From Magnetococcales bacterium (GTDB lineage: Bacteria > Pseudomonadota > Magnetococcia > Magnetococcales > JADFYX01), in the NCBI GenBank assembly GCA_002753565.1, contig PEAM01000002.1, positions 138,783-202,782 on the forward strand: a stretch of DNA of 64,000 nucleotides. Reading direction: 5' to 3'. This document shows, piece after piece, positions 14,637 through 61,445 of this stretch. Each line of letters opens with the position of its first letter. Positions within the stretch are counted from its first letter, which is position 1. Below the pieces are notes generated by a model. The model had not been told where the DNA came from and searched no databases. It saw only the letters and a list, made by a program, of their open reading frames with translations. The translations under genes and the position numbers were made by a program.

Positions 14637-15518
14637 ATGAACGGTTATCAAAAAGAGCAGGTTGAGAGTGGCGGCAGACCTGCCCTCTCTGATCGTGATT
14701 TTCACAAACTAAGCCGGGCGTTTCAAAAACGGTTTGCCCTTTTGATCTCTCCTGACGAAAAACAGTTACTCACCGACTGTCTCACCAACCGGGCCAGACA
14801 ACTGGGCATGCGCTCTCAGCTAAAATATCTGGATCACCTCTTTGACCCGGCCTTTTCCAATGAGGAGTTTGTCTATCTTCTCGATACCCTGACCGGCAAT
14901 CGAACCAACTTTTTCCGCCATCCAGAACATTTCGAATTTCTCGCCCAGACAGCCCTGCCGGAGCTGATTAAACAGCACGGTGCGGGAGTCAGTCGTAATC
15001 TGGTTGTCTGGAGTGCCGGCTGTACCTCTGGAGAGGAGCCATACTCTCTGGCCATGGTGCTTAAACAGTTTTCTGAACACTATCCCGGCATCAACTTCAT
15101 GTTCCAGATTTTGGCTACCGATGTCTCTTTTCGTATTTTGGAGAAGGCTGGTCGGGCTATCTATGATATGGATCAGGTCAAACCCATTCCGGTCTCCATG
15201 AAGAAAAAATTTCTTCTTAAAAGCAAAGACCGTTTTAAACTGCAGGTACGGGTCATTTCCGAACTACGCAAACAGGTTGTTTTCAGGCAGCTGGATTTTT
15301 TGGACCCTCGTTTTGGACTAAGGGAGAAGATGGATATCATCTTTTGCCGTCATGTCATCTGTTATTTTGATCGTCAGAATAAAGAGCGTTTGATTGGTAA
15401 GCTGTGTCAGTATCTTACACCGGGTGGCTATATCTTTTTAGGAGAGACAGAGTCTCTTCGACAGCTTAGTGTCCCCTTGGTTCAGGTGGCCCCTGCCGTC
15501 TACCGCCTCCCCTCCTAA
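14637..15518 (+). CDS. cheR: Chemotaxis methyltransferase CheR
   Basis: 293 aa with 'TNFFRHPEHFEFL' and the SAM-binding motif 'VWSAGCTSGEEPYSLAM'. Confidence 0.9.
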   Translation: MNGYQKEQVESGGRPALSDRDFHKLSRAFQKRFALLISPDEKQLLTDCLTNRARQLGMRSQLKYLDHLFDPAFSNEEFVYLLDTLTGNRTNFFRHPEHFEFLAQTALPELIKQHGAGVSRNLVVWSAGCTSGEEPYSLAMVLKQFSEHYPGINFMFQILATDVSFRILEKAGRAIYDMDQVKPIPVSMKKKFLLKSKDRFKLQVRVISELRKQVVFRQLDFLDPRFGLREKMDIIFCRHVICYFDRQNKERLIGKLCQYLTPGGYIFLGETESLRQLSVPLVQVAPAVYRLPS

Positions 15519-15526
15519 GCGGGAGG

Positions 15527-15733
15527 AGATTCCAACCCAATTGAAAACTATTGTGGATGGGGCTGGGAAGGCATTCATGCCTTCCCAGCGGGTTTGGGCA
15601 GCGCCCAAGGTTTAAGCCTTTGTTTTTAAATTTAAAAGCGTGGGGGTTTATTTAGGGCCTGCAAGGCCTCCCAAGGTGTTGACTTGGCCTTTAGCCGTTG
15701 TCCAAATTTGGTTTTGACTGACACTAACCAAAG
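15527..15733 (+). repeat. MITE-like intergenic repeat, copy A (full length)
   Basis: Shares long near-identical blocks with 31821-32035 (inverted) and 51606-51743. Terminal inverted repeats are 'tccaacccaatt..' and '..caaatttggttttga'. The internal hairpin is ctgggaaggcat-tc-atgccttcccag. Ends are approximate to about 15 bp. Confidence 0.8.
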
Positions 15734-15735
15734 AG

Positions 15736-16404
15736 CTACCAGAGTTCCGGCTCAACCTCTTCTTCGTTTCTTGGATCCGCCAGATTGCCCGGTGGAGCAG
15801 GAATACGACGTTTTCCCAGGCGTGTTTCTAAAAAAGGATAGCGGCTATAGAGGTTCTCCAAGGCTTCAATGACATGATCTTCTGGCACAAAAATGCGTCT
15901 GGCCCAGGCAAATTCCCAAAGTTCCCAATAATGGCTCCGACAGGCATCCCGCTCATTTTGCTCTTTAAAAGCCACATCACAACTCAACTCAAGGGTCAGT
16001 ATCTCTTGAAGCAGAGCCGCGCTGCCTTCCGGGTCTTGAACATACATCTCGGCTTGTTGGGCTTTTGGTTCGCGTTTTTCCAGGTCGATAATGGTCAATC
16101 CGATGGCTTGTACCAGAGGGTTAGCATACAGGCTGTTGGATATACCGACACCTTCCATGGCTTGTGAGAGGCGGTCCTTGGAGTTGGCAAACAGTTCCAG
16201 ACCAATATTGCCCAGTGGTTCTCGCAAGGGATGAAAAACCCCCTGGGTAGTGAGGGTCTTCATGGTCTCCATACCGGTATCATTCCAGATTTCCGTGGGA
16301 AGGAGATCTTCCAGATTATCTTTTCGCATCCGATCATAGCGTACCGAACCATCACGGCGGAGGATGATGGCAAGCATTTCGTCGACCAGGCTATCGTCTG
16401 ACAT
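15736..16404 (-). CDS. Hypothetical protein (acidic, Trp-rich C-terminal part), co-oriented 19 nt downstream of gap
   Basis: 222 aa ORF with an ATG start and GAGGAG about 8 nt upstream. I recognise no motif in it. Confidence 0.6.
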   Translation of the reverse strand: MSDDSLVDEMLAIILRRDGSVRYDRMRKDNLEDLLPTEIWNDTGMETMKTLTTQGVFHPLREPLGNIGLELFANSKDRLSQAMEGVGISNSLYANPLVQAIGLTIIDLEKREPKAQQAEMYVQDPEGSAALLQEILTLELSCDVAFKEQNERDACRSHYWELWEFAWARRIFVPEDHVIEALENLYSRYPFLETRLGKRRIPAPPGNLADPRNEEEVEPELW

Positions 16405-18736: not shown

Positions 18737-18780
18737 AACAGGCTCTGAAAAAAGGTACCTCCCTTTTTTCAGAGCCTGTT
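18737..18780 (-). terminator. 19-bp perfect hairpin downstream of tkt (putative intrinsic terminator)
   Basis: aacaggctctgaaaaaagg (18737-18755), loop tacctc, then ccttttttcagagcctgtt (18762-18780), 13 nt after the tkt stop. The arms contain A/T runs and the trailing tract is only pyrimidine-rich. Confidence 0.5.
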
Positions 18781-30213: not shown

Positions 30214-31857
30214 GTGTTGCGGCACATGATGAATGGTGGAACGACAATGAACCAAGATCCCTTCTCTTTTGAAGATGAACCGTCTCAAAATCCTAAATTG
30301 GCTGATGATCCAATGGAAACGTTGGTGGCGGAGGTTGAAGAGGAGACTTTCTATCTTCCAACCAAGCCCACGGCAGACAGGTTGAGTGATCACAGGGGCG
30401 GATCGGTCGATGAGCGGCGCTCTGTATGGGGTCGACTTGTTCAGACACGGCGACCCATATGGGAGATGTTTGTCACCATTCCTGTGGCGGTCTTGGCCGG
30501 TTATCACCTGAAATCTCTTTCGATACCCTCCATGGAAGAGCTGTTTTCCACACCGACTGCGCCGACCATCCAGATTGAGACGGTACAACCGAGAATGGTG
30601 GTGGCCCCCGCTGTTCCCAGCCAGGAAAGAGCCATTGCAACAACGGCTTCTGCTCAAACCACCCTGTTGGAGGTCAAAGAGACTTCACCCCAAGGGGTCA
30701 CGGTTCCGACGCTGCCTGTAGAGAGTGTTACCTCTGCTGTTTCTGTTGCACCCGTTGTACCTGTTACACCTGTTGCGGCTCTTCCCGAGAAGAAACCGGC
30801 CAAACTCATTGCCGAGGAGATGGCTGAATTGGCTCGAGTGGCCATGGAAAAAAAGAGTCGTAACAGTGAACAGTTTGCAGAGAGCATGGTGGTTCCAGCT
30901 CCGCATAGAAAACTGGAGATTGGGGCCTATCTGGTCTCGGATCAGCAGGTGGCTTCCATTGTTATTCCTTTGCCGCGCAAAAGAGGTGAGATGGTTGTTC
31001 CAGCACCCCTTTCACGTTTGCTGGGCCGTTTGGCTGAGAAAGAGGCTCCTCTGCAGGGAGGTGAACATCAAGCTGTTGCGGCTCCGGCCCCCATTAAAAA
31101 GCGTGTGACCCATGCCATGGAGGCTCCTCCACGCAAGCGGGGAGAGATGGCGACTAACTTGGATCCAGTCAAAAAATTGTCCCAAAGCGGCGTTCAGTCA
31201 GATCACTCGCAATTAAGAGGGTTTGTGCTTTTTTTGGGGTCGTATCGGCAGGCTAAATCCAGCTATCTGAAGGCTATCAGCGAAAATCTGAAACAGGAGG
31301 CGGTCAATCTGATTCAGCAGACCATCCAGTTTGAAGATGAGTCGTATACTCGGCTCTACATCGGCCCCTTTGCCAGCCGGGAGGAGGCGATTGTAGCCAA
31401 AAAAGCGCTGTTTGACTCCCAAAAAATTAAAAGCTCTGTTACCTATCTGCAGCCAGGTACCAGCCAATTTTCTCAGGTTAAACCCATTGGATCTCCCATC
31501 CAGTTTGCTCAGGTATCAACACCCAGAAAGAGCCTGCATGCGCCACAGTCCCAAAAATATGTGGTCCATTTAGGCTCCTATCAAAATGTGGGGGTGGACT
31601 CCTCTGGCAACCTGCTGAAAAAAATTACTGAGCTGGGAGGTGTCGGGTTTCAAAAGGGGACACAAATCAAGGGCACCACTTACTGGCGGGTCTATAGCGG
31701 CCCATATTACACCATCACTCAGGCCACAGAGGCGAAGAACAACCTGAAGAGACGTTTGAATCTATCCAATGCCACCTTAATGACGGAAGGGGATAAAGAG
31801 GGCTGGATCAAGGTGGAAGGGTATAGCCAATTAAAACCAAATTTGGACAACGGTTAA
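30214..31857 (+). CDS. SPOR-domain (peptidoglycan-binding) protein with two C-terminal SPOR repeats
   Basis: 547 aa with two SPOR-like modules ('FVLFLGSYRQ...YTRLYIGPFASREEA' and 'YVVHLGSYQN...YWRVYSGPYYTITQA'). The start is uncertain; ATG 30247 has GGTGGA upstream. The last ~11 codons lie inside repeat copy B. Confidence 0.75.
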   Translation: MLRHMMNGGTTMNQDPFSFEDEPSQNPKLADDPMETLVAEVEEETFYLPTKPTADRLSDHRGGSVDERRSVWGRLVQTRRPIWEMFVTIPVAVLAGYHLKSLSIPSMEELFSTPTAPTIQIETVQPRMVVAPAVPSQERAIATTASAQTTLLEVKETSPQGVTVPTLPVESVTSAVSVAPVVPVTPVAALPEKKPAKLIAEEMAELARVAMEKKSRNSEQFAESMVVPAPHRKLEIGAYLVSDQQVASIVIPLPRKRGEMVVPAPLSRLLGRLAEKEAPLQGGEHQAVAAPAPIKKRVTHAMEAPPRKRGEMATNLDPVKKLSQSGVQSDHSQLRGFVLFLGSYRQAKSSYLKAISENLKQEAVNLIQQTIQFEDESYTRLYIGPFASREEAIVAKKALFDSQKIKSSVTYLQPGTSQFSQVKPIGSPIQFAQVSTPRKSLHAPQSQKYVVHLGSYQNVGVDSSGNLLKKITELGGVGFQKGTQIKGTTYWRVYSGPYYTITQATEAKNNLKRRLNLSNATLMTEGDKEGWIKVEGYSQLKPNLDNG

Positions 31858-32035
31858 AGGCAAAGTCAACACCTTGGGAGGCCTTGCGGGCCCCCAAACC
31901 CCCACGCTTTTAAAGATAAAAACAAAGGCACAGTCAAAGGCTGACACCTTGGGCGCTGCCCAAACCCGCTGGGAAGGCATTCATGCCTTCCCAGACCCAT
32001 CCGCTATTGTTTTGCACCCATTTGGTTTGGAATCT
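31821..32035 (-). repeat. MITE-like intergenic repeat, copy B (inverted, full length)
   Basis: Its reverse complement aligns with copy A along its whole length, and the core 'ctgggaagg...cccaaggt' is identical apart from the 2-nt hairpin loop. The terminal sequences are 'ttaaaaccaaatttgg' and 'catttggtttgga'. Confidence 0.8.
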
Positions 32036-32045
32036 TTATAACAGG

Positions 32046-33359
32046 CTAGGCCGATGACTCTACCGCTTGGAGCGCCGCCTCAATACCGTCCCAGGCTCGG
32101 TGAAGGTCCGCCTCGCTGATGCAGTATGGGGGGAGAAGATAGAGAACATTGCCCAGGGGGCGGATCAATAGCCCCCGTTCGATAAAAAAAGCTTTGAGAA
32201 AAGGGGCCATTTTCGAGCCATAGCCCGCATCGGCCGTGACAAAATCCAGAGCAGCAATCACCCCGGTAATCCGAGGTTTTTCCAGGGAGGTGCGTGGAAG
32301 AATAGCGGCCATCCGTTGCTGATGGATGGTTTCGATTTGGGCGACCTTCTCCAGACTTTTTTCCTGCTCAAATAGAGAGAGAGAGGCCAGAGCCGCCGCA
32401 CAGCTTAACGAGTTGGCGGTAAAGGAGTGACCATGGGCAAAGGCCCGGTCGAAGGATTCCCCCAAAAAAGCCTCATAGATCGACTCTCGACAGACGGTAA
32501 CCGATAGAGGCATAAAGCCGCCGGTCAACCCCTTGGACAAGCAAATAATATCGGGTGTCACACCGGCCTTTTCACTGGCAAACAGGGTGCCGACCCGACC
32601 AAAGCCGGTCATTACCTCATCAAAAATCAGCAGTACACCCGCCGCCTTGACCCGTTTGGCAACCGCTTGGATAAACTCAGGACGACACATCCGCATACCC
32701 GAGGCACCCTGAACCAGGGGTTCAAGAAGCAGGCCGGCACAGCGGTGCCCCTGGGTTTCAAGGTAGCTATCCAGTGCCGCCAGAGAGTCAGCCTCCCGAG
32801 CCTCAACCGTCTGGTCTCCCATCCAGGTTTGAGGGTAGGGGAGGGTATCCACAGCAAAAAGCAGCGGTTTGAATGGCTCAAAAAAACCGGTCGTTGCCCC
32901 CATGGACATGGCCCCAACGGTATCGCCATGATAGCCGCCGTCAAAAGCCAGAAACTGATCTCTCTGCTCCCCGCGGTTGAGATAATATTGACGTGCCATC
33001 TTCAGGGAAACCTCCACCGCTGTGGAGCCGTTATCCGAGAAAAATACCCGTGTCAAACCAGCCGGTAGTTTTTCTGCCAACGCTGTGGCCAGATGTACAG
33101 CGGGTTCATGGGTAAAACCGGCAAAAATCACCTGCTCCAACTTTTTGGCCTGCTGAGCGATGGCCTCGGCAATAACCGGATGGGCGTGTCCATGGGTGGT
33201 CAACCACCAGGAGGAGATCAGGTCCAGATAGCTCTTGCCGTCCGCCCCATGCAGGGTGGCCCCCGAGGCGGAGAGGATGGGAATGGGGTCGGGGGCTGTA
33301 GCCTCCTGAGTAAAGGGGTGCCAGACATGGCGGCGGTCTTGAAGAATCAGATTATTCAT
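32046..33359 (-). CDS. bioA: Adenosylmethionine-8-amino-7-oxononanoate aminotransferase
   Basis: 437 aa class-III aminotransferase with 'DEVMTGFGRVGTLFA' and the PLP Lys in 'CLSKGLTGG', located in the bio cluster. Confidence 0.9.
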   Translation of the reverse strand: MNNLILQDRRHVWHPFTQEATAPDPIPILSASGATLHGADGKSYLDLISSWWLTTHGHAHPVIAEAIAQQAKKLEQVIFAGFTHEPAVHLATALAEKLPAGLTRVFFSDNGSTAVEVSLKMARQYYLNRGEQRDQFLAFDGGYHGDTVGAMSMGATTGFFEPFKPLLFAVDTLPYPQTWMGDQTVEAREADSLAALDSYLETQGHRCAGLLLEPLVQGASGMRMCRPEFIQAVAKRVKAAGVLLIFDEVMTGFGRVGTLFASEKAGVTPDIICLSKGLTGGFMPLSVTVCRESIYEAFLGESFDRAFAHGHSFTANSLSCAAALASLSLFEQEKSLEKVAQIETIHQQRMAAILPRTSLEKPRITGVIAALDFVTADAGYGSKMAPFLKAFFIERGLLIRPLGNVLYLLPPYCISEADLHRAWDGIEAALQAVESSA

Positions 33360-33405: not shown

Positions 33406-35784
33406 CTATCGGGTGGATTGAGTCATATAGAGTTCATCCAGCAATTTGAAAAGCTCCACACGGACAGATTCCAGAGCCAGGTAGAGTTTTTGTGCTTCGT
33501 CACGTTGTCCAACCTTGCTGGCATCCAACACCATGGCACCCTGGTCATGAACCTGAGAGTGAACCCGGCCTATCTCTTGGAAGAGTGGAAGATGGCCCAG
33601 CTGTTGAGTCCCTTCATTATCGTACCATTGACCAAATTTGCAGTCGTGACCGGTACGGATCTCGTCGATGGAGAGGGTGCTGCTACGTCCCAAGGCCATC
33701 TGACCCAGGTTGCCAAGCCAGACAAGGTGGTGATGCTTGACGGTATAGATATCCAGAGGAAGCTGACCAATATCCAGCTCCTTGACCGCATCTTGAAGAT
33801 CGTTGCTGGCCCCGTCTACGACGTTGTTCATGCGTACCGTATGGCTGATCATACCATCGACCAAGGTGTTGAGATCGTAAATTTTCAACGCATTTTTCTG
33901 GACATCGGCCGAAGAGCTGAAAATTCCCTCACCCAACCCCTTGATCTGCTGTGTCATGTCGCTGACCGCATTGACCTCCAGGGTAATGGTGTCCGACTCG
34001 GCTGCGGCCCGTTGAGAGGATTCGGCAATGGCAGCGGTGTTGGCGGCGGCCTGCTGAGCATTGCGAGAGACCTCCTGAGCCGCCATGCCCATGTCATGGA
34101 CATTTCGGGTCACGGCCTGGGCCGCCTGCTCGACATCATTCATGGAGTTGGCGATGCTCTCTACCGATTCGCTCTGTTCGGTCACAGCCAGGGTGATATT
34201 CTGGTTGGACTGGTCGATTTGGGTGAAGGCTTTGGTTACCCGCTGGGTTGTCTCATTGGCTGCTTTGGTGTTGTCTTGGATCATCTCCACCATTTTAGAG
34301 ATCTCCAGGGTGGCGCTGACCGTCTGTCGAGCCAGATCCTTGACCTCATCAGCCACCACCGCAAACCCTTTGCCAGCCTCCCCGGCCCCGGCAGCCTCAA
34401 TGGCAGCGTTCAAGGATAGCATGTTGGTCTGTTCGGCAATGTTGCTGATGATATCCACCACATGACCAATCTCCTGGGCCGACTGGGCCAGGGTTGCCAT
34501 AATGGATTGGTTCTCCTCGACCAGATTGCTGGCCTTGCTGGTGGTATGGCTGGCAGATTGACAGAGATCTCGAACCGAATTAAGCGAGTTGGTCACCCCC
34601 TGAATAGAGGCGGTGACCGTATTGACCGAGTTGCTGACCAGTCCCAGACTCTCATCCACCCCACCAATGTTGGCGGTCATCTCCTCGGCGGCTGAGGCCA
34701 TGGTCAAGACGTTCTGGCTGACACTTTCGGCTTCAGTGGCGATGGTCTGAATCTCTGCAGCAAGCTGTCCGACCCGACCGTTGACCACCAGAACATTATC
34801 GGCAGCATCATCGACGCTGTTTTTCAGGTTGGTTGTCTCTTGGTCGATTTGATCGTTATCTTTGACCATTTGAATGATCATGGCCCGAATTTCTGCCGCA
34901 TCGGCCTCCAGCACCGCACCAGAGGTGGTCATGGCTCGGACCACCGCCTGGGTGGTCTGGGCTTGCAGTTGAATGGCTCGGGTACTGTTGGCCAGACTGT
35001 CGGCCATACGGTTGACCAGGGCGCTGATTTCGTTGATCTCGTCTCTTTTTTCAGGAATCTCGATCCGCTGGGTCAGATTGCCCTGGGTCATGCTGTTGAT
35101 CATGAGAGAAATCTCTTTGAGGGGGCTGATAATGGTTCGACCCAGAATGAAGAAGGCCCCCAGAGCGACAATAAGGGTCACAATGGCTGTCTCCACTCCC
35201 AGGCTTCTGGCTCCTTCCCAAAACAGTCGGTTGACATCATCCAGATAGATTCCCGAACCGATAACCCAACCCCATGGCTCAAACCCTTTAACAAAAGAGA
35301 TTTTGGCTACCGGTTTGTCGAAGCCGGGCTTGGGCCAGAGGTAGTCCACAAAGCCGGAGCCCTGCCGCTTGACAATTTGGGTAAAATCATAAAAGAGCCG
35401 TTTCCCCCCTTTATCCTTAAATTGGGAGAGATCTTTACCGTTGAGTTTGGGCTTGATGGGATGCATCACCATCACGGCATCCATGTCGTTGATCCAAAAA
35501 TAGTCGTTCTCTTCGTAGCGAAGAGATTGGATGATGGCTTTGGCCTGCTCTTGGGATTGGGCTCGGGAGAGGGTGCCGTTCTGCTCCAGAGTGTAGAAAT
35601 GGCTTAGAACGCTGTGGGCGGTCTCCACCACATTGCGGGTTTTGATTTTGCGGTCGCTGAGTAGCTCCCCCTCCCGGCTGCTGATGGTGATGATGCCGCT
35701 GATGACCATACCCAACAGTGCAAACAGGATGATCAGATGAATCCGGCCCCGAACACTCAAAAACGAACTTAAACCATTCACCAT
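33406..35784 (-). CDS. Methyl-accepting chemotaxis protein: sCache-type sensor, HAMP, MCP signalling domain, C-terminal CZB zinc-binding domain
   Basis: 792 aa. The sensor has '[15 protein letters not shown]...[11 protein letters not shown]' (single-Cache type). The signalling tip is '[40 protein letters not shown]'. The CZB pattern is 'HLVW...CKFGQW...HSQVH'. Confidence 0.9.
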
Positions 35785-35950
35785 GATAGTGGCCCTTATA
35801 CTGGGTCTGGCAATGGCTGGAATCGCCTTGACCCTTTGGGTGGGAGAGAGGGAGGTATCAGCTATTAGGGTTGCGTCTTGATTTAAATCTCCACAAATTT
35901 ATAGCATATTTCAATCAATTATGGACAAAAAAAAACAGGTGAATAGCACT

Positions 35951-44337: not shown

Positions 44338-44416
<79 letters not shown>

Positions 44417-44452
44417 TTTCCAACATCGCCGAATGGCTGATGACTTCGGCTT

Positions 44453-44529
44453 GCGCTCGTAGCTCAACAGGATAGAGCAACGGCCTTCTAAGCCGTAGGT
44501 TACAGGTTCGATTCCTGTCGAGCGCACCA
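44453..44529 (+). tRNA. tRNA-Arg (anticodon TCT)
   Basis: Hand-folded cloverleaf: acceptor GCGCTCG/CGAGCGC, anticodon loop CTTCTAA, T-arm ACAGGTTCGATTCCTGT, an encoded CCA, then a T-run. Confidence 0.9.
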
Positions 44530-44584
44530 TTTTTTCAGTTGACTTTATTTGCCCTTTTTTCCTATCTTCAAAACCCCACCGTAT

Positions 44585-44661
44585 GGCGGTCGTAGCTCAG
44601 TTGGTAGAGTCCCGGATTGTGATTCCGGTTGTCGCGGGTTCAAACCCCGTCGATCGCCCCA
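44585..44661 (+). tRNA. tRNA-His (anticodon GTG) with encoded G-1
   Basis: Hand-folded cloverleaf: an extra 5' G opposite C73, acceptor GCGGTCG/CGATCGC, anticodon loop TTGTGAT, and an encoded CCA followed by T7. Confidence 0.9.
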
Positions 44662-49928: not shown

Positions 49929-50058
49929 TCCTAGCCAGAGAGCCTGCCTGTGGGTTGGGAATGGTTTTTGCTATCCAAAATGAGATTCTTCTTTCCGGTC
50001 CGTTAGGCCATAGGCTCTTTTTTCGGATTTGGAACCAATCAAATGTGAGGTCGAAACA

Positions 50059-51489
50059 ATGGAACGCCCTTCCAAAAAGAGTGAGCTTGCTCAATTTTTT
50101 AATCAACTGGCCCCTGAGAGAGATCGCTGGCTCAACAAAAACCGCTTTTTCTATCAAGACGATCTCCGCTATTTTCACTACCTTGTTCCCAAGGGTAAAC
50201 GGGTTGCTGAGCTGGGGTGTGGTACGGGCGATCTTCTCTCGCAGCTGGAGCCTTCCTACGGTGTTGGGCTGGATATCAGTGAGGAGATGATCAAACTGGC
50301 CAGAGAGAAACATGACCATCTGACTTTTTTGGTGGGGGATGTTGAAGAGGGGGCGACTCTTGATCAACTGGAGGGGCCGTTTGATTATATCATCCTGCCG
50401 GATTTAATCGGCTATCTGGAGGATGTGGAGGAGACCTTTCTGGCCCTGCATCGGCTCTGCACTCCAGAGACCCGCATCATCATCACCCACTACAACCAGC
50501 TTTGGGGGCCGATTCTCAACCTGGGTGCTCAACTGGGTATGAAGATGCCCTCCAGAATCCAAAACTGGCTGACGGGGCAGCAGATCTGCTCCTTTCTTAA
50601 AATAGGCGATTTTGACCTTATTCAGCGTGAACGGCGCCAACTGATCCCGGTCTCCCTGATGGGTCTTGGCGCCCTGGTCAATCAGTATATCGCCCCCTTT
50701 CCGGTGATTCGTCGCCTCTGCTTGCGGAATTTTTTTGTTGCTCGCCCCCTGCCTGACCCCACCCCCCGAGAGCTATCCACCACCGTGGTTATTCCCTGTC
50801 GTAACGAACGGGGTAATGTTGAGGCGGCGATCAAACGGATTCCCCCCTTTTGCCAGGATATGGAGATTCTCTATGTGGAGGGTAACAGCCAGGATGGCAC
50901 CTTTGAAGAGATTCAACGGGTGATTGATGCCTACCCCAACCTGGATATCAAAGGGTTTCAGCAGACCGGCAAGGGGAAGGGGGATGCGGTGCGATTGGGC
51001 TTTGACAAGGCCCGTGGGGAGCTGCTGATGATCCTCGATGCCGATTTAACCATGCCACCCGAAGATCTGCCCAAGTTCTACCGGGCAATTTCCCAACGGA
51101 AAGGGGAGTTTATCAACGGTTCCCGTCTGGTCTATCCCATGGAGGATGAGGCGATGCGTACCCTCAACCTCTGGGCTAACAGCACCTTCTCCTATCTTTT
51201 TAGCTGGCTGCTCAACCAGCCCCTGACCGACACCCTCTGTGGTACCAAGGTGTTGCTGAAAAAAGATTATGAACAGATTGCCAAAAATCGCAGCTATTTT
51301 GGCACCTTCGACCCTTTCGGAGATTTTGACCTGCTGTTTGGTGCAGCCAAAGCCAATTTAAAAATCCGTGAGATTCCCATCCGTTACCGGGCCAGATCCT
51401 ATGGCGAGACCCAGATCTCCCGCTTTCGCCATGGGGTTCTGCTGCTTAAAATGGTTCTGTTTGCCTTCCGAAAGCTCAAGTCCTTCTGA
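50059..51489 (+). CDS. Fusion protein: class I SAM methyltransferase (N-terminal) + family 2 glycosyltransferase (C-terminal)
   Basis: Start at ATG 50059 with GAGG 8 nt upstream; the ORF track start at 50029 is TTG. MTase motif 'VAELGCGTGD'. GT2 motifs 'VVIPCRNE' and 'ILDADL'. Confidence 0.8.
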   Translation: MERPSKKSELAQFFNQLAPERDRWLNKNRFFYQDDLRYFHYLVPKGKRVAELGCGTGDLLSQLEPSYGVGLDISEEMIKLAREKHDHLTFLVGDVEEGATLDQLEGPFDYIILPDLIGYLEDVEETFLALHRLCTPETRIIITHYNQLWGPILNLGAQLGMKMPSRIQNWLTGQQICSFLKIGDFDLIQRERRQLIPVSLMGLGALVNQYIAPFPVIRRLCLRNFFVARPLPDPTPRELSTTVVIPCRNERGNVEAAIKRIPPFCQDMEILYVEGNSQDGTFEEIQRVIDAYPNLDIKGFQQTGKGKGDAVRLGFDKARGELLMILDADLTMPPEDLPKFYRAISQRKGEFINGSRLVYPMEDEAMRTLNLWANSTFSYLFSWLLNQPLTDTLCGTKVLLKKDYEQIAKNRSYFGTFDPFGDFDLLFGAAKANLKIREIPIRYRARSYGETQISRFRHGVLLLKMVLFAFRKLKSF

Positions 51490-51605
51490 TGCCATCTCCC
51501 GCTCCGTCGGGGGGGTATTGGGCTTATCGGCTTGGGGCTGATGGGGTCTAGCCCTCAACCTCTGCAGCCAGGGTCTCTCCCTGGCTGTTTTGCGCCAGAC
51601 TATAG

Positions 51606-51743
51606 AGATTTCAAACCAAATTTGTACAAAACGATTGCGGATGGGTCTGGGAAGGTATGCCTTCCCAGCGGATTTGGGCAGAGCCCAAGGTCCTAAGACT
51701 TTGCCTTTTACCGTTGTCCAAAGCTGGTTTTAATTAACCATAG
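51606..51743 (+). repeat. MITE-like intergenic repeat, copy C (internally deleted)
   Basis: Has the same termini ('ttcaaaccaaatttg' and 'caaagctggttttaa') and the hairpin ctgggaagg-tatg-ccttcccag. It lacks the central ~70 bp that lies between two 'cccaaggt' direct repeats in copy A. Confidence 0.75.
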
Positions 51744-51914: not shown

Positions 51915-53699
51915 CTACTGCTCCCAAGGGTAGGCCAGTCCAACCAGACGAAACCCCACATCCGCATCCCGCTCATCAGGTGCAAAGCTGTCTCGGTAGG
52001 CGGAGCGAGTACGAAGGGAAGGGGAGAGCCAGGAGCCGCCCCTCAGGACCCTTTCACCCTGTTTAGACCAGACACTGCGGGGGTTTTCGGTTGGCGAGGT
52101 GTGATAAAAATTGGGCTCATACCAATCTCGGGTCCACTCGAAAACATTGCCATGCATATCCAGTAGACCATAGGGGTTGGCGGCATGGGAAAAATGTTCT
52201 ACCGGGGTGGTTCCCGCTCTAAAGAGGCCGGGTTGACTGAAGGGGGAGGGTTTCAATCCGTTAAAGTTGGCTTGATCACTTAGGATCTGCTCTCCGAAAG
52301 AGAACGGTGTCTCGCTACCCCCCCGGCAAGCCCGCTCCCATTGGGCTTCGCTGGGGAGTTGAATGAAACGATGACAGCGCTGGGAGAGCCACTCGGCCAT
52401 GGCCAAGCAATCGGCATAGGTGACATTGACCACAGGGTGGTCCTCCTCCTGGTGGAAACCCGGCGCCATCCACCCCTCACCCTCTCTTCTCTCCAACCGC
52501 CCTTTTGCCGGGTTCCAAACCCGAAACCACCCCTCTCTCTGTGCCAGGGTCTGATAGCCTGTCTTCTGCTGAAACCGGCTGAACGATGCACGGGTTATGG
52601 GGGTACGGCAGATCCAGAAACCGTTGAGCTTAACCGGATGCCGAGGGGTTTCGCGCTGAAAGCTGGTGGTATAGTCCTCTTCACCAAAGGTTTGGATAAT
52701 GGTCTCCTGCTCTGCCGCACTCTGGCCCATAAGGAAGGTACCGCCAGGGACCCAGTTGAAGGTCAGCTCCACACCCGCCTCCGCAATGGTCCACCCCTTC
52801 CCGGCCGGCAGGCGACTGCGGAGCAGAAGCGTCGCCTTTCTCTTCTTCCCCTGGGGAAGCACCACCTCCTGCACCTGATCCAGAGTCCATCTTTTCTTGG
52901 GATTTTTAGCCAACATGCCTGCCAGGAGTGTTTTTAACGGTTTGGGGCAGCTATCGGGAATGTTGACCGGGTTGACATTTTTTTGGTGTTTACCAATGGT
53001 CTCCGATCCGCCCTCATAGGCCGGACGACCAAAGAGCATGAAATAGAGGGTCATCCCCAGGGAGTAGACATCAGAGACCAGATAACGTCTTTTACGCCAC
53101 ACCTCTGGGGCGGTATAGCTATGGGTGCCGGAAACAGCAGGCTCTCGTGCCCGGTGCCACTCACAGGCCAGACCCCAGTCGGCCAGATACCAGCTCATTC
53201 GGTCTGTTCCGGTTCTCTTGCCGATAATGTTTGAGGGCTTGATGTCTCGGTGGATGATGGGGGGAGTGCTGTGGTGGGCATGGGCAACCGCTTGGACCAT
53301 CTGGCCAAGCACCGAGAGCGCTTCGGACTCCTTCAGGCAGCCACGGTCGACAATGGCCTGTTTTAGGTTCCCCCCATCCAGATAGTCGGTGATGATAATC
53401 ATGGCGCCGTCTTCATCCAGCCAGCTTTCATGGAGAGGCAGAATATGGGGTCCATCTCGGAGGATGGTCAGCATTTTTACCTCCGACCGATAGAGGTAGG
53501 GCTTTCTGGCTACCGTCGCCTGTTTCATGGCAAAAAGACGACCCGATGCCAGCTCACGCACTTGATAGATCAGGGCAAAATTACCCTCTCCCACTTTTTT
53601 TACGATTTCGTACCGTCCCGATCCCAGGCGCTCTCCGGCAACATACTTTTTCGGAAAGTTATCGGGTTGGGCGGCGGGGAATGTTTGGGTGGTGTTCAA
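51915..53699 (-). CDS. Ser/Thr protein kinase fused to FGE-sulfatase (SUMF1-like) domain
   Basis: 594 aa. Kinase motifs are 'VGEGNFALIY', 'FAMKQ', 'HRDIKPSNII', 'DWGLA' and 'YTAPE'. The C-terminus has 'GNVFEWTRDWY' and 'RVLRGGSW' (FGE-sulfatase). The apparent start is TTG, with no in-frame ATG before the kinase domain. Confidence 0.85.
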   Translation of the reverse strand: MNTTQTFPAAQPDNFPKKYVAGERLGSGRYEIVKKVGEGNFALIYQVRELASGRLFAMKQATVARKPYLYRSEVKMLTILRDGPHILPLHESWLDEDGAMIIITDYLDGGNLKQAIVDRGCLKESEALSVLGQMVQAVAHAHHSTPPIIHRDIKPSNIIGKRTGTDRMSWYLADWGLACEWHRAREPAVSGTHSYTAPEVWRKRRYLVSDVYSLGMTLYFMLFGRPAYEGGSETIGKHQKNVNPVNIPDSCPKPLKTLLAGMLAKNPKKRWTLDQVQEVVLPQGKKRKATLLLRSRLPAGKGWTIAEAGVELTFNWVPGGTFLMGQSAAEQETIIQTFGEEDYTTSFQRETPRHPVKLNGFWICRTPITRASFSRFQQKTGYQTLAQREGWFRVWNPAKGRLERREGEGWMAPGFHQEEDHPVVNVTYADCLAMAEWLSQRCHRFIQLPSEAQWERACRGGSETPFSFGEQILSDQANFNGLKPSPFSQPGLFRAGTTPVEHFSHAANPYGLLDMHGNVFEWTRDWYEPNFYHTSPTENPRSVWSKQGERVLRGGSWLSPSLRTRSAYRDSFAPDERDADVGFRLVGLAYPWEQ

Positions 53700-58014: not shown

Positions 58015-58665
58015 ATGATGAAACCAGCTTTTAGCCGGACCGGAAGCTACGCCGCTTTTTTTGGGTGTATCGTGGTCCTGATGCTGTTTACTACCTCTGT
58101 TCAGGCAGAGGTGGTCAATATCAACCAAGCCGATGCGGCAACCCTGCAGAAAAATCTGAAGGGTGTTGGGCCGGTGAAGGCTCAGGCGATTATCGACTAC
58201 CGTAACCAGCATGGCCCCTTCCAGAGTGAAAAAGATCTGGAGAAGGTCCCTGGGATCGGCTCGAAGATCATGGAAAAGAACCAAAACGCGATATCAACCT
58301 CTCGTGGGGCGGCTCAGAGCCAGAGAAGCCAAAATCGTCGTGAAGATATCGACAAGAGGAGTGAGAGAAAAGAGAATATGAGTCAGCGTTCCCAGCGACT
58401 GGAAGAGCGCAAAGAGAGGCTCTCCAACGAGCAGGCCAGCGATACCGAAAACCCCACAAAAAATGCTGAAAAAATTGAGAAAATTACAAAAAAACAGCAG
58501 CGGATCAAAGAGCGATCAGAGAAAATGGGTAAAAAGAGCAAGAAAAGCCAAGAAGAGATAAAGAGAATAAAAGAGGAGCGAAAGAAACAGCGGAAAAAGG
58601 CCAAAAAGAAAAAGGCCAAAAAAAAGATGAAGAAGGAAGAGCAAACCACCTCTGACAGCCAGTAA
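58015..58665 (+). CDS. ComEA-like helix-hairpin-helix DNA-binding protein with long Lys/Glu/Arg-rich C-terminal tail
   Basis: 216 aa with a signal/anchor 'AAFFGCIVVLMLFTTSVQA' and HhH motifs 'VNINQADAATLQKNLKGVGPVKAQAII...LEKVPGIGSKIMEKN'. About 120 aa of charged low-complexity sequence follows, ending 'KKQRKKAKKKKAKKKMKKEE'. Confidence 0.75.
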   Translation: MMKPAFSRTGSYAAFFGCIVVLMLFTTSVQAEVVNINQADAATLQKNLKGVGPVKAQAIIDYRNQHGPFQSEKDLEKVPGIGSKIMEKNQNAISTSRGAAQSQRSQNRREDIDKRSERKENMSQRSQRLEERKERLSNEQASDTENPTKNAEKIEKITKKQQRIKERSEKMGKKSKKSQEEIKRIKEERKKQRKKAKKKKAKKKMKKEEQTTSDSQ

Positions 58666-59234: not shown

Positions 59235-61445
59235 ATGAGTATCTTGGTGGTAGCTGTAGTCGTCGTGGTGGCAATGGGGCTCTCTTCTTTAGCGACCGTG
59301 TTGGTCCTTCGCAAGATCCATTCAGGTCAGAGCCAGACGCTAAAGACGGCTATGGATCAGGCTGCCATGGGCGATTTGATGGTCACCATCCCAGAGGCCT
59401 CTCCCCTTTCAGTAGAGGTAAAATCGGGTTGGCAGGAGATGTTGAGTCGGCTGGCGGGCAATTTGCGGCGGATTATTTTGCAGTCGGATACGGTGGCGGC
59501 TTCGGTTAATGAGCTGCTGATTATCAAGAAAAACCTCGGCGACTCCACCGTCGATACTCTCAAATCGGTTGAGTCCATGGACCATCAGCTCCAGGATTTG
59601 GGCGGGGCCATCAGCCGGGTAGAGGAGAATGTCACCAGCACCTCTGCTCTGGTGAACGACATTACCTCGGCCACCGACATGTTAACCGAGGATATCTCCA
59701 AGATTACCGAGTCGGCAGAGAGTGCCAATCAAAATGTCACCACCATGGCAGCCGCCGCTGAGGAGATGACGGCCAATTTGGCTGCTGTCAATCAAAGTTT
59801 GGCCGAGGTCAACGAGTCGGTCAATCAGGTCTCCACCTCCACCAGCAACCTTTCGGTCACCATCGACGGCATCCGTGATCTCTGCTCCTCTGCCAGCAAG
59901 CAATCTTCCCAGGCTGACCAATATGCCACCGACAGTGGCGTCAAGATGGAGCAGCTGGCCAGTTATACCGATGAGATCGGCAGTTTTGTCGAGATGATCA
60001 ACAATATTGCCGAACAGACCAACATGCTGGCCCTCAACGCCTCCATCGAGGCGGCTGGAGCGGGTGAGGCGGGTAAAGGGTTTTCGGTGGTTGCCAACGA
60101 GATCAAAGAGTTGGCCCGTCAAACCTCCGATACCACCTCGGCCATCTCCGAAAAGGTGACCAATATCCAGCTCCACACCAAGGAGGTGGTCTACGCCAAC
60201 CGGGAGGTGACGGTCATTATCCAGGGCATCAACCAGTCCAATCAGAACATCGCCCTGGCTGTTGATGAGCAGTCCCATGCCATTCGGGGTATCTCCGACT
60301 CCCTGACCACCGTAACCAACGCCACCCAAGAGGTGACCCGTAATGCCTCTGAACTTCAGGTAGCCGCGGATGAGGTGGCCCGCTCAGCCGGTATAGCCGC
60401 CTCGGGTTCCGAGGCCATTGTTCACGCCTCTGCCGAAGTGGCGGAAGCGGCAGATGGGGTCTCCAAGAACAGCCAGGAGATCAATCAATTGATGGTTGGC
60501 GTTCAAGAGCAGATTGCCAAGACCACCCAGGTCTCCGCTGAGGCCAATAAAAACATTCAAGAGGTTTTTGCCATCGCTCAGAAGATGCAGGGGGGGGTGC
60601 GTAACTTTGAGCTGTTGATCGATGTCATTCAGGGCAGTGTGGAGTCGTTGTGCGCCAGTCAAATCAACTACACCACCGGTATCCAATCCTTTGAGGTGAC
60701 AGCGGTCAAGGAGGGGCATCTGGCGTGGTTGCGTAAGTTGGATGGTGCCATTCAAGGGGTGCTCACCCTGGACCCCAAAGAGGCTGAAAATGGTCGGGCC
60801 TGCCATTTTGGCAACTGGTACTATGGCGCCGGCGAGAAGCTGTTTGGGGATGATCCTCTCTTTCAGGAGATCGGTACCGTTCACCAGGATGTCCACACCC
60901 TGGCCCGGGATGCCATTCTCAAGGTGAATGAAGGGGATAAGGCGGGAGCTGTCGAGTTGATGGAGAAGTTCAACCACCTCCGCCACGAACTCTTCGTCAA
61001 ACTGGATTTTCTCTACATGAAGGGGAGTGTCAGCGACGAGAAGATGTTCTATTGGGATGACTCCCTGGATGTGGGGGTCAAGCAGCTCAATGATGAACAT
61101 ATCGTGCTGATGGATATGATCAACGACCTCCATGCCGGTATGAAGAGCGGCTTGGATAAAGAGAAAATGGCGAAGATCCTGGATGGACTGGCCGACTTTA
61201 CCGGTACTCACTTCTCCCATGAAGAGGCGTTGTTGGCCAAGTACGATTATGAGCGGCTACCCCAGCAAAAAGCGCTGCATGTCAAGCTGATTGCCAAGCT
61301 TGGCGAACAGCGGGAGGCCTTCTTCTCCGGCTCGGCTACCGCCTCTTTGGATGTGCTCTCTTTCCTTAAAGATTGGCTGATTACCCATATCAAGGGGGAG
61401 GATATGCGCTATAAATCTTTCTTTGAGTCCAGAGGCGTTCACTAA
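59235..61445 (+). CDS. Methyl-accepting chemotaxis protein with C-terminal CZB and hemerythrin domains in tandem
   Basis: 736 aa with a single N-terminal TM and HAMP-like segment. The signalling tip is '[40 protein letters not shown]'. The CZB pattern is 'GHLAW...CHFGNW...HQDVH'. The hemerythrin motifs are 'NDEHIVL / HFSHEEALL / LHVKL / THIKGED'. Confidence 0.9.
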   Translation: MSILVVAVVVVVAMGLSSLATVLVLRKIHSGQSQTLKTAMDQAAMGDLMVTIPEASPLSVEVKSGWQEMLSRLAGNLRRIILQSDTVAASVNELLIIKKNLGDSTVDTLKSVESMDHQLQDLGGAISRVEENVTSTSALVNDITSATDMLTEDISKITESAESANQNVTTMAAAAEEMTANLAAVNQSLAEVNESVNQVSTSTSNLSVTIDGIRDLCSSASKQSSQADQYATDSGVKMEQLASYTDEIGSFVEMINNIAEQTNMLALNASIEAAGAGEAGKGFSVVANEIKELARQTSDTTSAISEKVTNIQLHTKEVVYANREVTVIIQGINQSNQNIALAVDEQSHAIRGISDSLTTVTNATQEVTRNASELQVAADEVARSAGIAASGSEAIVHASAEVAEAADGVSKNSQEINQLMVGVQEQIAKTTQVSAEANKNIQEVFAIAQKMQGGVRNFELLIDVIQGSVESLCASQINYTTGIQSFEVTAVKEGHLAWLRKLDGAIQGVLTLDPKEAENGRACHFGNWYYGAGEKLFGDDPLFQEIGTVHQDVHTLARDAILKVNEGDKAGAVELMEKFNHLRHELFVKLDFLYMKGSVSDEKMFYWDDSLDVGVKQLNDEHIVLMDMINDLHAGMKSGLDKEKMAKILDGLADFTGTHFSHEEALLAKYDYERLPQQKALHVKLIAKLGEQREAFFSGSATASLDVLSFLKDWLITHIKGEDMRYKSFFESRGVH

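Follow-up and report, generated by a model that had tools for sequence, protein, structure and literature searches.

What are the short non-coding sequences that recur between genes in the genome of this uncultured, magnetotactic Magnetococcales bacterium? The DNA analysed here, referred to below as the window, is a stretch of 64,000 nucleotides (assembly GCA_002753565.1, contig PEAM01000002.1, positions 138,783 to 202,782), in which an initial annotation had noted three copies, A, B and C, of a repeat resembling a MITE (miniature inverted-repeat transposable element). Our analysis indicates that these copies probably belong to a Correia-like MITE, which carries a module of two hairpins, targets TA, is moved in trans and survives mainly between convergent genes. 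A MITE is the preferred reading because what has multiplied here is the element in its entirety, inverted repeats included. The initial annotation missed the Correia-like ends of the element, as well as the fact that its hairpins form a conserved and covarying module, common to plasmid origins and to the repeats of other bacteria.

Copies of the element in the window

Copies A, B and C are in register over their whole length in a MAFFT alignment, and they thus constitute one family. A 35-nt block, ATGCCTTCCCAGCGGGTTTGGGCAGCGCCCAAGGT, occurs three times in the window with no more than two mismatches, compared with no occurrence in 100 shuffles, and the block at the right end of the copies likewise occurs three times, compared with none in 100 shuffles. 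The alignment and these block matches confirm the places where the three copies had been annotated. The element is non-coding and 143-220 bp long, and it contains the 12-bp G+C hairpin (CTGGGAAGGCAT/ATGCCTTCCCAG) and the small hairpin TTGGGC-NNN-GCCCAA, both of which had already been pointed out. The copies and their parts are as follows.

15527-15726, + strand: copy A, with a degenerate left end, filling the 217-nt gap between convergent stops
15516-15518 and 15736-15738: flanks of copy A, namely the stop of cheR and the stop of a gene for 222 amino acids
15562-15589, + strand: hairpin 1 of copy A, a 12-bp stem with loop TTCA
15590-15611, + strand: conserved core (hairpin 2) of copy A, GGGTTTGGGCAGCGCCCAAGGT
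15640-15682, + strand: second, diverged module of copy A (GGGGGTTT..GGGCCTGCAAGGCCTCCCAAGGTGTT)
31822-32040, - strand: copy B, full length, nearest to the family consensus, with TATA flanks at both ends
31968-31994, - strand: hairpin 1 of copy B
31946-31967, - strand: conserved core (hairpin 2) of copy B
31868-31937, - strand: second, diverged module of copy B, a separate covariance-model match of 22.3 bits
32012-32040, - strand: left terminal inverted repeat of copy B, TATAAAGATTCCAAACCAAATGGGTGCAA, with the bioA stop next to it at 32046-32048
31822-31857, + strand: end of the SPOR-domain gene (its last 11 codons, YSQLKPNLDNG, and stop), supplied by the right inverted repeat of copy B
51601-51742, + strand: copy C, a short form from which 74 bp are missing internally
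51601-51629, + strand: left terminal inverted repeat of copy C, TATAGAGATTTCAAACCAAATTTGTACAA
51714-51742, + strand: right terminal inverted repeat of copy C
51647-51691, + strand: hairpin 1 (shorter loop) and core (two mismatches) of copy C
51599-51628, - strand: left end and flank of copy C, an outward promoter-like match (TGTACA-18-TATAGT, 9/12), by consensus only

Copy C lacks 74 bp that are present in A and B, its deletion being bounded by a pair of internal direct repeats, GACTTTGCCTTT. In agreement with the initial annotation, the element has no conserved open reading frame (ORF): all six frames contain stops and frameshifts, which differ from copy to copy, and a spurious-ORF search of the six-frame translation against a protein database gave no match. 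A small protein gene was therefore rejected. Segmental duplication was also rejected, because the copies have unrelated flanks and defined ends, and so was a fourth window copy at 35900-35928, a 29-nt match at 76% accompanied by no other element sequence. In addition, a hairpin, cagccagggtctctccctggctg, is located at 51566-51590, just 5' of copy C and 3' of a gene for 486 amino acids, and it is possibly the terminator stem of that gene.

Further copies in the same genome

The contig JADFYR010000011.1 of the metagenome-assembled genome (MAG) GCA_015232915.1, which carries the CheR of the window, is 99.995% identical to the window over 20.9 kb. In the window together with 33 kb outside it, about 97 kb in all, seven copies or fragments were found at six loci of this one Magnetococcales genome, so that four copies, D, E, F1 and F2, are added to the three first described. 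The 10 kb adjoining the window on its left (locus L002) contain both D and E. Copy D, whose left end is absent, lies between the convergent metallophosphoesterase and aroC genes, and the metallophosphoesterase ORF terminates inside it. Copy E is full length with a decayed hairpin 1; it follows the 3' end of a nuoN-like gene and precedes the 5' end of the gene after it, the two genes being co-directional, and is adjoined by a separate canonical bidirectional terminator. Copies F1 and F2 form an adjacent pair between convergent genes on a different contig of this MAG, of which 22.8 kb were sampled (L166). Hairpin 1 of F1 differs in sequence (CAGGGAC/GTCCCTG), while F2 shows a compensatory G-C to T-A stem change and a deleted core.

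The MAG contigs JADFYR010000011.1 and JADFYR010000018.1 both stop inside copy B (window positions 31965 and 31897) and overlap by 69 nt, because a multi-copy repeat disrupts short-read assembly. The exact 21-mer CCTTCCCAGCGGNTTTGGGCAG had no match in the collections of genome contigs and metagenome contigs, although copy D contains it; therefore, the source genome is outside those two collections. In the species collection, four MAGs of Magnetococcales come nearest, with about 59-60% protein identity, and the names given to the window proteins agree with this affiliation. A relative of the element, with clean ends and the same internal layout, occurs on a contig of an unrelated metagenome (L050).

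Terminal inverted repeats and the probable target site

The terminal inverted repeats noted at first are real, and at about 29 nt they are longer than was claimed. They start with TATAG and end with CTATA, as in TATAGAGATTTCAAACCAAATTTGTACAA versus TATAGCCAATTAAAACCAAATTTGGACAA, and the inverted repeats TATAG..AAACCAAATTTG.ACAA are present at both ends of copies B, C and E. The left ends read TATAGAGATTTCAAACCAAATTTGTACAA in copies C and F2, TATAAAGATTCC... in copy B and TAGAGAGATTTC... in copy E, whereas the right ends, taken as reverse complement, read TATAGCCAATTAAAACCAAATTTGGACAA in copy B and TATAACCTGTTAAAACCAGATTTGGACAA in copy E, the others being similar. The relative on contig L050 has near-perfect inverted repeats of 29 nt that also start with TATAG, TATAGCCGTTCCAATTTAAAGTTGCTCAA and TATAGTCGTTCCATTTATAAATTGCACAA.

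TATA flanks occur at every intact element end, which fits the pattern expected from duplication of a TA target beside TAG...CTA termini. The gap between nuoN and MT28, where copy E is located, measures 307 nt in this genome versus 97 nt in a relative. When copy B is removed in silico and one TA is kept, the SPOR gene regains an in-frame stop, ...GGG TAA, at a distance of 4 nt from that of bioA. As it stands, the SPOR ORF extends 11 codons into copy B, and its protein has 13 residues past the W-I-K-V motif, compared with 2-6 past W[VI][KR][VI] in seven homologues. This hints, indirectly, that insertion of copy B may have duplicated a TA.

Genomic placement

The initial annotation had placed every copy between convergent genes. 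This placement is enriched, five of the six loci being of this kind, but it is not general, since copy E lies between co-directional genes. Within the window, where junctions were counted by hand from the ORF list, about 7 junctions are convergent, of which 3 contain a copy, whereas none of the other 41 or so does (hypergeometric p ~0.002). The preference for 3'-3' gaps is therefore real but not absolute. An exact fit of the copies to their gaps, which had also been suggested, is seen only in part: copies A and B fill their gaps, whereas copy C is inside a gap of 425 nt (between the genes at 50029-51489 on the + strand and 51915-53699 on the - strand), and the ORFs running into B and D overstep the supposed limits.

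The convergent placement is most simply explained as tolerance of insertions where no promoter exists. Most likely, a transposase encoded elsewhere would move the element in trans, by cut-and-paste into TA, as in Correia. Insertions would accumulate in short convergent gaps, where a TA, often that of a TAA stop, may be available without damage to a promoter or an ORF. The placement would then be a matter of tolerance, possibly combined with a target bias, and not of a function that is needed.

Comparison with Correia elements and other MITEs

Correia elements begin with TATAG, which was the starting point for a deliberate comparison. They measure 100-155 bp, insert into TA by cut-and-paste, and can create promoters with their ends. 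To our knowledge, their transposase has not been identified. Published variants of the Correia repeat include TATAGTGGATTAAATTTAAATCAGGACAA (PMC5039591), to which the ends of the present family are identical at 16-21 of 29 positions in ungapped comparison. The upper value, 21 of 29, was reached by only 8 of 20,000 composition-preserving shuffles with TATAG fixed.

Like Correia elements (CREE or NEMIS), the copies are small, non-coding and intergenic, have inverted repeats of 26-29 nt that start with TATAG and are flanked by TA, occur in long and short forms differing by an internal deletion, and possibly carry an outward promoter at an end, here TGTACA-18-TATAGT at copy C, a weak match to the consensus. 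Unlike them, the family is larger (143-220 bp versus 100-155 bp), its host belongs to the Magnetococcales and not to Neisseria, a different phylum-level lineage, and its interior is a two-hairpin module, likeness in the interior not having been systematically searched. Judged by sequence, the family appears to be Correia-like in behaviour and not a Correia element, which is a matter of similarity rather than identity.

The family also resembles other TA-targeting MITEs, for example the IS630-derived RUP of Streptococcus pneumoniae, in its terminal inverted repeats and TA flanks, its size within the range of 100-300 bp, its lack of coding capacity and its multiplication within one genome. It differs from them in that no matching insertion sequence was identified for it, and in that its interior is a conserved structured module, not the remnant of a deleted transposase.

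The two-hairpin module

What, then, is carried inside the element? The module is composed of GGT, a variable hairpin, one pyrimidine and then GGGTTTGGGC-NNN-GCCCAAGGT-YTT. Each full-length copy in the window contains it twice in tandem, the second being diverged, with a longer second hairpin. The core, GGGTTTGGGCNNNGCCCAAGGT, was found in at least 120 metagenome contigs from very different environments and in one viral contig, and a hairpin of 8-14 bp, with a sequence specific to each case, lies one base 5' of it in nearly all the contigs listed. Conservation is bounded 3 nt 5' of hairpin 1 (GGT) and 3 nt 3' of the core (YTT). Even the core variants with two mismatches are compensatory, namely TTCGGGC..GCCCGAA and TGTGGGC..GCCCACG.

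A covariance model of the module, built on 11 sequences, matched 173 times in the selected loci; in about 600 kb from unrelated genomes, which had been fetched originally for another purpose, it matched nowhere. Among the aligned matches, 99.1% of the cells are paired, double changes occur in 14 of 15 pairs, and the compensatory cells number 509 versus 153 +/- 8 in shuffles; it should be noted that this alignment was fitted to the model, which favours structure, and that slid controls are only 39-71% paired. The module is conserved by structure and strongly covarying. On the motif strand, G.T pairs number 10 and A.C pairs 2 among the 68 distinct first hairpins (p = 0.039), which points modestly to folding in one specific strand.

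Orientation relative to the gene upstream says nothing in the case of convergent pairs and was left aside. The orientation of the module has no relation to the neighbouring genes, which mostly belong to unrelated housekeeping Pfam families, together with Mob_Pre (ten times), Rep_1 (three times) and RepL (twice). No Rfam 15 family for the module was found in the window, where only three tRNAs were reported, or in 20 other loci; permissive Rfam scans gave matches at chance level only, and no match for the core sequence was found in the open-access literature.

In the gap between fabI and aroC, four related MAGs contain the module as an inverted pair, with the hairpin CCAGGGGAA-TCA-TTTCCCTGG followed by GTGGGTTTGGGC-NNN-GCCCAAGGTT. 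This gap is about 540 nt long in those MAGs versus 33 nt in this genome. The pair flanks a centre that has its own terminator-like hairpin, and the whole looks like a composite element of about 420 bp (L005:9660-10090, L006:2130-2555, L030:12195-12615 and L004:12330-12440). On two contigs of JGI994J12354, an A+T-rich organism, the module is a very dense repeat similar to those called repetitive extragenic palindromic (REP), with 9 model matches in 13.5 kb (L069) and 8 in 11.3 kb (L098), often as divergent or tandem pairs. Another Magnetococcales MAG, GCA_015231175.1, has a tandem duplicate of a three-hairpin variant (L169:16497-16647), with GGTC or GGGT before each hairpin, between convergent carbonic anhydrase and FHA genes.

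The module in single-strand origins of plasmids

The single-strand origin (sso) of plasmid pTA1060 corresponds to NC_001766 6349-6549, and sso1 of ICEBs1 (an integrative and conjugative element, ICE), which is homologous to it, is functional and orientation-specific (Wright, Johnson and Grossman, PMC4595007). At its 3' end, the sso region of pTA1060 reads CCAACGG-CCAT-CCGTTGG-T-GGGTTTGGGCAAAGCCCAAGG. This module scores 49 bits by the covariance model, both hairpins form in a single-strand DNA fold, and its 19 fixed core bases are those found in the hairpin core of A and B. The region has matches in 647 plasmids, the majority from Bacillus, and in most cases the matching sequence stops where the module does, at its 3' end. 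The module is part of the pTA1060 origin region, which does not imply that the origin needs it for function.

The resemblance to ssoT-type origins (pTA1060, pBAA1 and ICEBs1 sso1) concerns the architecture of the last 50 nt or so of the pTA1060 sso. Only this terminal part is common to the window, the whole origin of about 200 nt is not matched, and the upstream 5' stem-loops, including the Rfam RF01691 part, are absent from the window; moreover, the window has several copies, all of them chromosomal, and they occur in both orientations. A study by Seery and Devine in 1993 reportedly maps the functional stem-loops of the pBAA1 origin. The ssoA type was rejected as a related origin, its conserved RSB sequence, TTATGCCGAGAAAATTT, being unrelated. 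Within the open-access literature, no link between MITEs and single-strand origins was found.

In nine of ten cases with a Mob_Pre relaxase beside it, the module is 90-175 nt upstream of the relaxase gene and on the same strand. The ten relaxases are mutually homologous and therefore count as one or two lineages. In plasmids, the module beside mobV lies about 50 nt upstream of the pMV158-type nick sequence GTGTG/TT.

Two further observations concern these plasmids. RF01691, 'Bacillus-plasmid RNA', is listed as a candidate RNA, has a TTGACT motif in its stem, and was found at L160:105-160 (NC_001766 6354-6409) and L161:1100-1153, inside the pTA1060 sso region; because of this position, it may be a single-strand DNA structure and not an RNA. 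A variant of the second module, with the hairpin GGGGTTTGGGGGCC-GGAACA-GGCCCCCAAGGTGTT, occurs at L162:1497-1535 in plasmid pAOVO01 of Acidovorax sp. JS42 and in about 10 other plasmids of Comamonadaceae and Pseudomonas, with a borderline BLAST E-value of only 0.2. These MOBF conjugative plasmids each contain it two to three times, in an extended non-coding region.

Weighing the explanations

That the copies are MITEs, as was first proposed, is now well supported by their common ends, their lack of coding capacity and the seven copies or fragments at six loci, as well as by the deletion and truncation variants, the nested or adjacent pair, the assembly break in copy B and the relative on contig L050. 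Several points weigh against the fuller account given here, with its Correia-like ends, TA target and movement in trans. TATA is self-complementary, so that without an empty site a TA duplication is inseparable from a TATAG terminus owned by the element itself, and no empty site was found, the nearest genomes being only about 41-60% identical in protein. The left end of copy A departs from the TATAG pattern. No transposase with matching ends was seen in the 97 kb of this genome, and no transposase family is among the top 25 of the 100 Pfam families listed for the window proteins. The likeness to Correia was sought deliberately, and it concerns A+T-rich 29-mers. Finally, the modules of other genomes are inverted pairs without the long TATAG repeats, and sequence conservation across phyla is unusual for the cargo of a MITE.

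The last point suggests that the module has a mobility or a function of its own, because its core is exact across phyla, its limits are sharp, and it is clustered in other genomes. This property is probably exerted in single-stranded nucleic acid, and the activity may consist of folding or priming in single-stranded DNA, or of protection of RNA 3' ends.

Could the module itself be the mobile unit? It would then be similar to REP sequences and to their arrangements known as BIMEs and REPINs, and would be moved as single-stranded DNA by a HUH-type tyrosine transposase (RAYT or a relative), while in the Magnetococcales family the long TATAG repeats would form a shell specific to the lineage, or else another layer with no relation to the module. 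We regard this as unlikely. Like REPs, BIMEs and REPINs, the module is a short, G+C-rich, intergenic hairpin structure, often in clusters and inverted pairs (for example, the 13.5-kb contig with its 9 model matches) and commoner at the 3' ends of genes. Its conservation breaks off abruptly, 3 nt ahead of hairpin 1 and 3 nt beyond the core, its orientation is unrelated to the neighbouring genes, and the mild excess of G.T over A.C pairs, 10 to 2 in 68 hairpins, suggests folding as a single strand. Hairpins in single-stranded DNA are what HUH enzymes act on, and the module is found in plasmid regions that work as single strands. In this genome, however, the likeness between copies extends far past the module, into long flanks and inverted repeats, whereas REPs have no long terminal inverted repeats, and REPs are species-specific, whereas the module core is nearly identical across very different communities. 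The conserved tetranucleotide of the GTAG type beside the stem, the usual signature of REPs, is not evident either. A tblastn search with E. coli RayT gave no match with E < 0.8 in about 1.4 Mb of fetched loci, which is a weak test, since RAYT is usually single-copy.

If the elements were instead kept for a role in RNA, they would be 3'-UTR (untranslated region) stabilisers or terminators common to both convergent transcripts, and not primarily selfish DNA. In favour of this, convergent genes flank five of six loci, the 12-bp G+C hairpin, being a palindrome, would form in transcripts of both strands, and the folding energies are below those of shuffles (z = -3.5 and -2.6). REP and Correia elements are generally known to affect mRNA ends (PMC2649163, in part). 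A bidirectional terminator, which the initial annotation had envisaged, is not supported by the sequence: on neither strand of any copy does a T-run come after a hairpin, a terminator scan finds none inside copies A, B and C, and a canonical rho-independent terminator was consequently rejected. Copy E stands beside a separate canonical bidirectional terminator, hairpin 1 is decayed in this copy, the core is deleted in copy F2, and the module orientation is unrelated to gene orientation. An RNA role would also leave the inverted-repeat ends, the truncations and the exact core across phyla unexplained. We therefore consider such a role improbable, more so than a mobile module.

Least of all do we expect the module to be an active single-strand origin or priming signal here, with the elements as remnants or vehicles of DNA that has a single-stranded stage (rolling-circle or conjugative), for although it forms the 3' end of the defined pTA1060 sso and of a block conserved in 647 mostly Bacillus plasmids, is situated beside mobV on the same strand as the nick and upstream of it, and has a second-module variant in MOBF conjugative plasmids, only the last 50 nt or so of the origin are common, the 5' stem-loops including RF01691 are absent from the window, and the copies are chromosomal, in both orientations, with no replication or transfer genes nearby.

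A TA-targeting MITE with Correia-like ends and transposition in trans is still the explanation that we favour for the elements of this genome.

Other features of the window

A cluster of three tRNAs is located at 44338-44658 on the + strand. The long inverted repeats at 34265-34731 and 59715-60181 (227 and 125 nt, 70% complementary), in two chemoreceptor genes on opposite strands, are paralogous signalling domains of methyl-accepting chemotaxis proteins, not a mobile element. A 19-bp palindrome, AACAGGCTCTGAAAAAAGG..CCTTTTTTCAGAGCCTGTT, at 18737-18780 between the rhodanese-like and transketolase genes, is likely a terminator and is unrelated to the family. In addition, two clear ORFs, at 59235-61445 (a hemerythrin-type chemoreceptor of 736 amino acids, whose best database match is only 47% identical) and at 58015-58665 (a ComEA-like protein of 216 amino acids), are not on record as called genes; the window assembly may differ from the deposited MAG, or the genes may have been called differently.

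Significance

The family is new but of a known kind, and as MITEs are common, the family alone would be a routine addition. Searches of the open-access literature turned up no earlier description of the likeness to Correia ends, or of a module common to plasmid origins and chromosomal repeats. A second, distant family with Correia-type ends provides a comparative handle for finding the Correia transposase. The family also has practical consequences, since it breaks the short-read assembly of the MAG GCA_015232915.1 and adds false C-terminal tails to annotated proteins, namely the SPOR protein and the metallophosphoesterase.

The module is absent from Rfam, and yet it is present in single-strand origins of plasmids and ICEs that have been studied, as well as in chromosomal repeats of unrelated bacteria. 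If it acts in single-stranded DNA, REP-like repeats would be connected with lagging-strand origins. Tentatively, and with more doubt than confidence, we suggest that the module might be an undescribed, portable single-strand DNA signal shared across phyla, read by a conserved enzyme for priming or for HUH-type cleavage, which would form the end of ssoT origins in rolling-circle plasmids and ICEs and be carried by the MITE or REP-like chromosomal repeats of Magnetococcales, termite-gut and other bacteria. If this is true, the lagging-strand origins of plasmids and the dispersed repeats of bacterial chromosomes would be linked by common descent or by a common mechanism.

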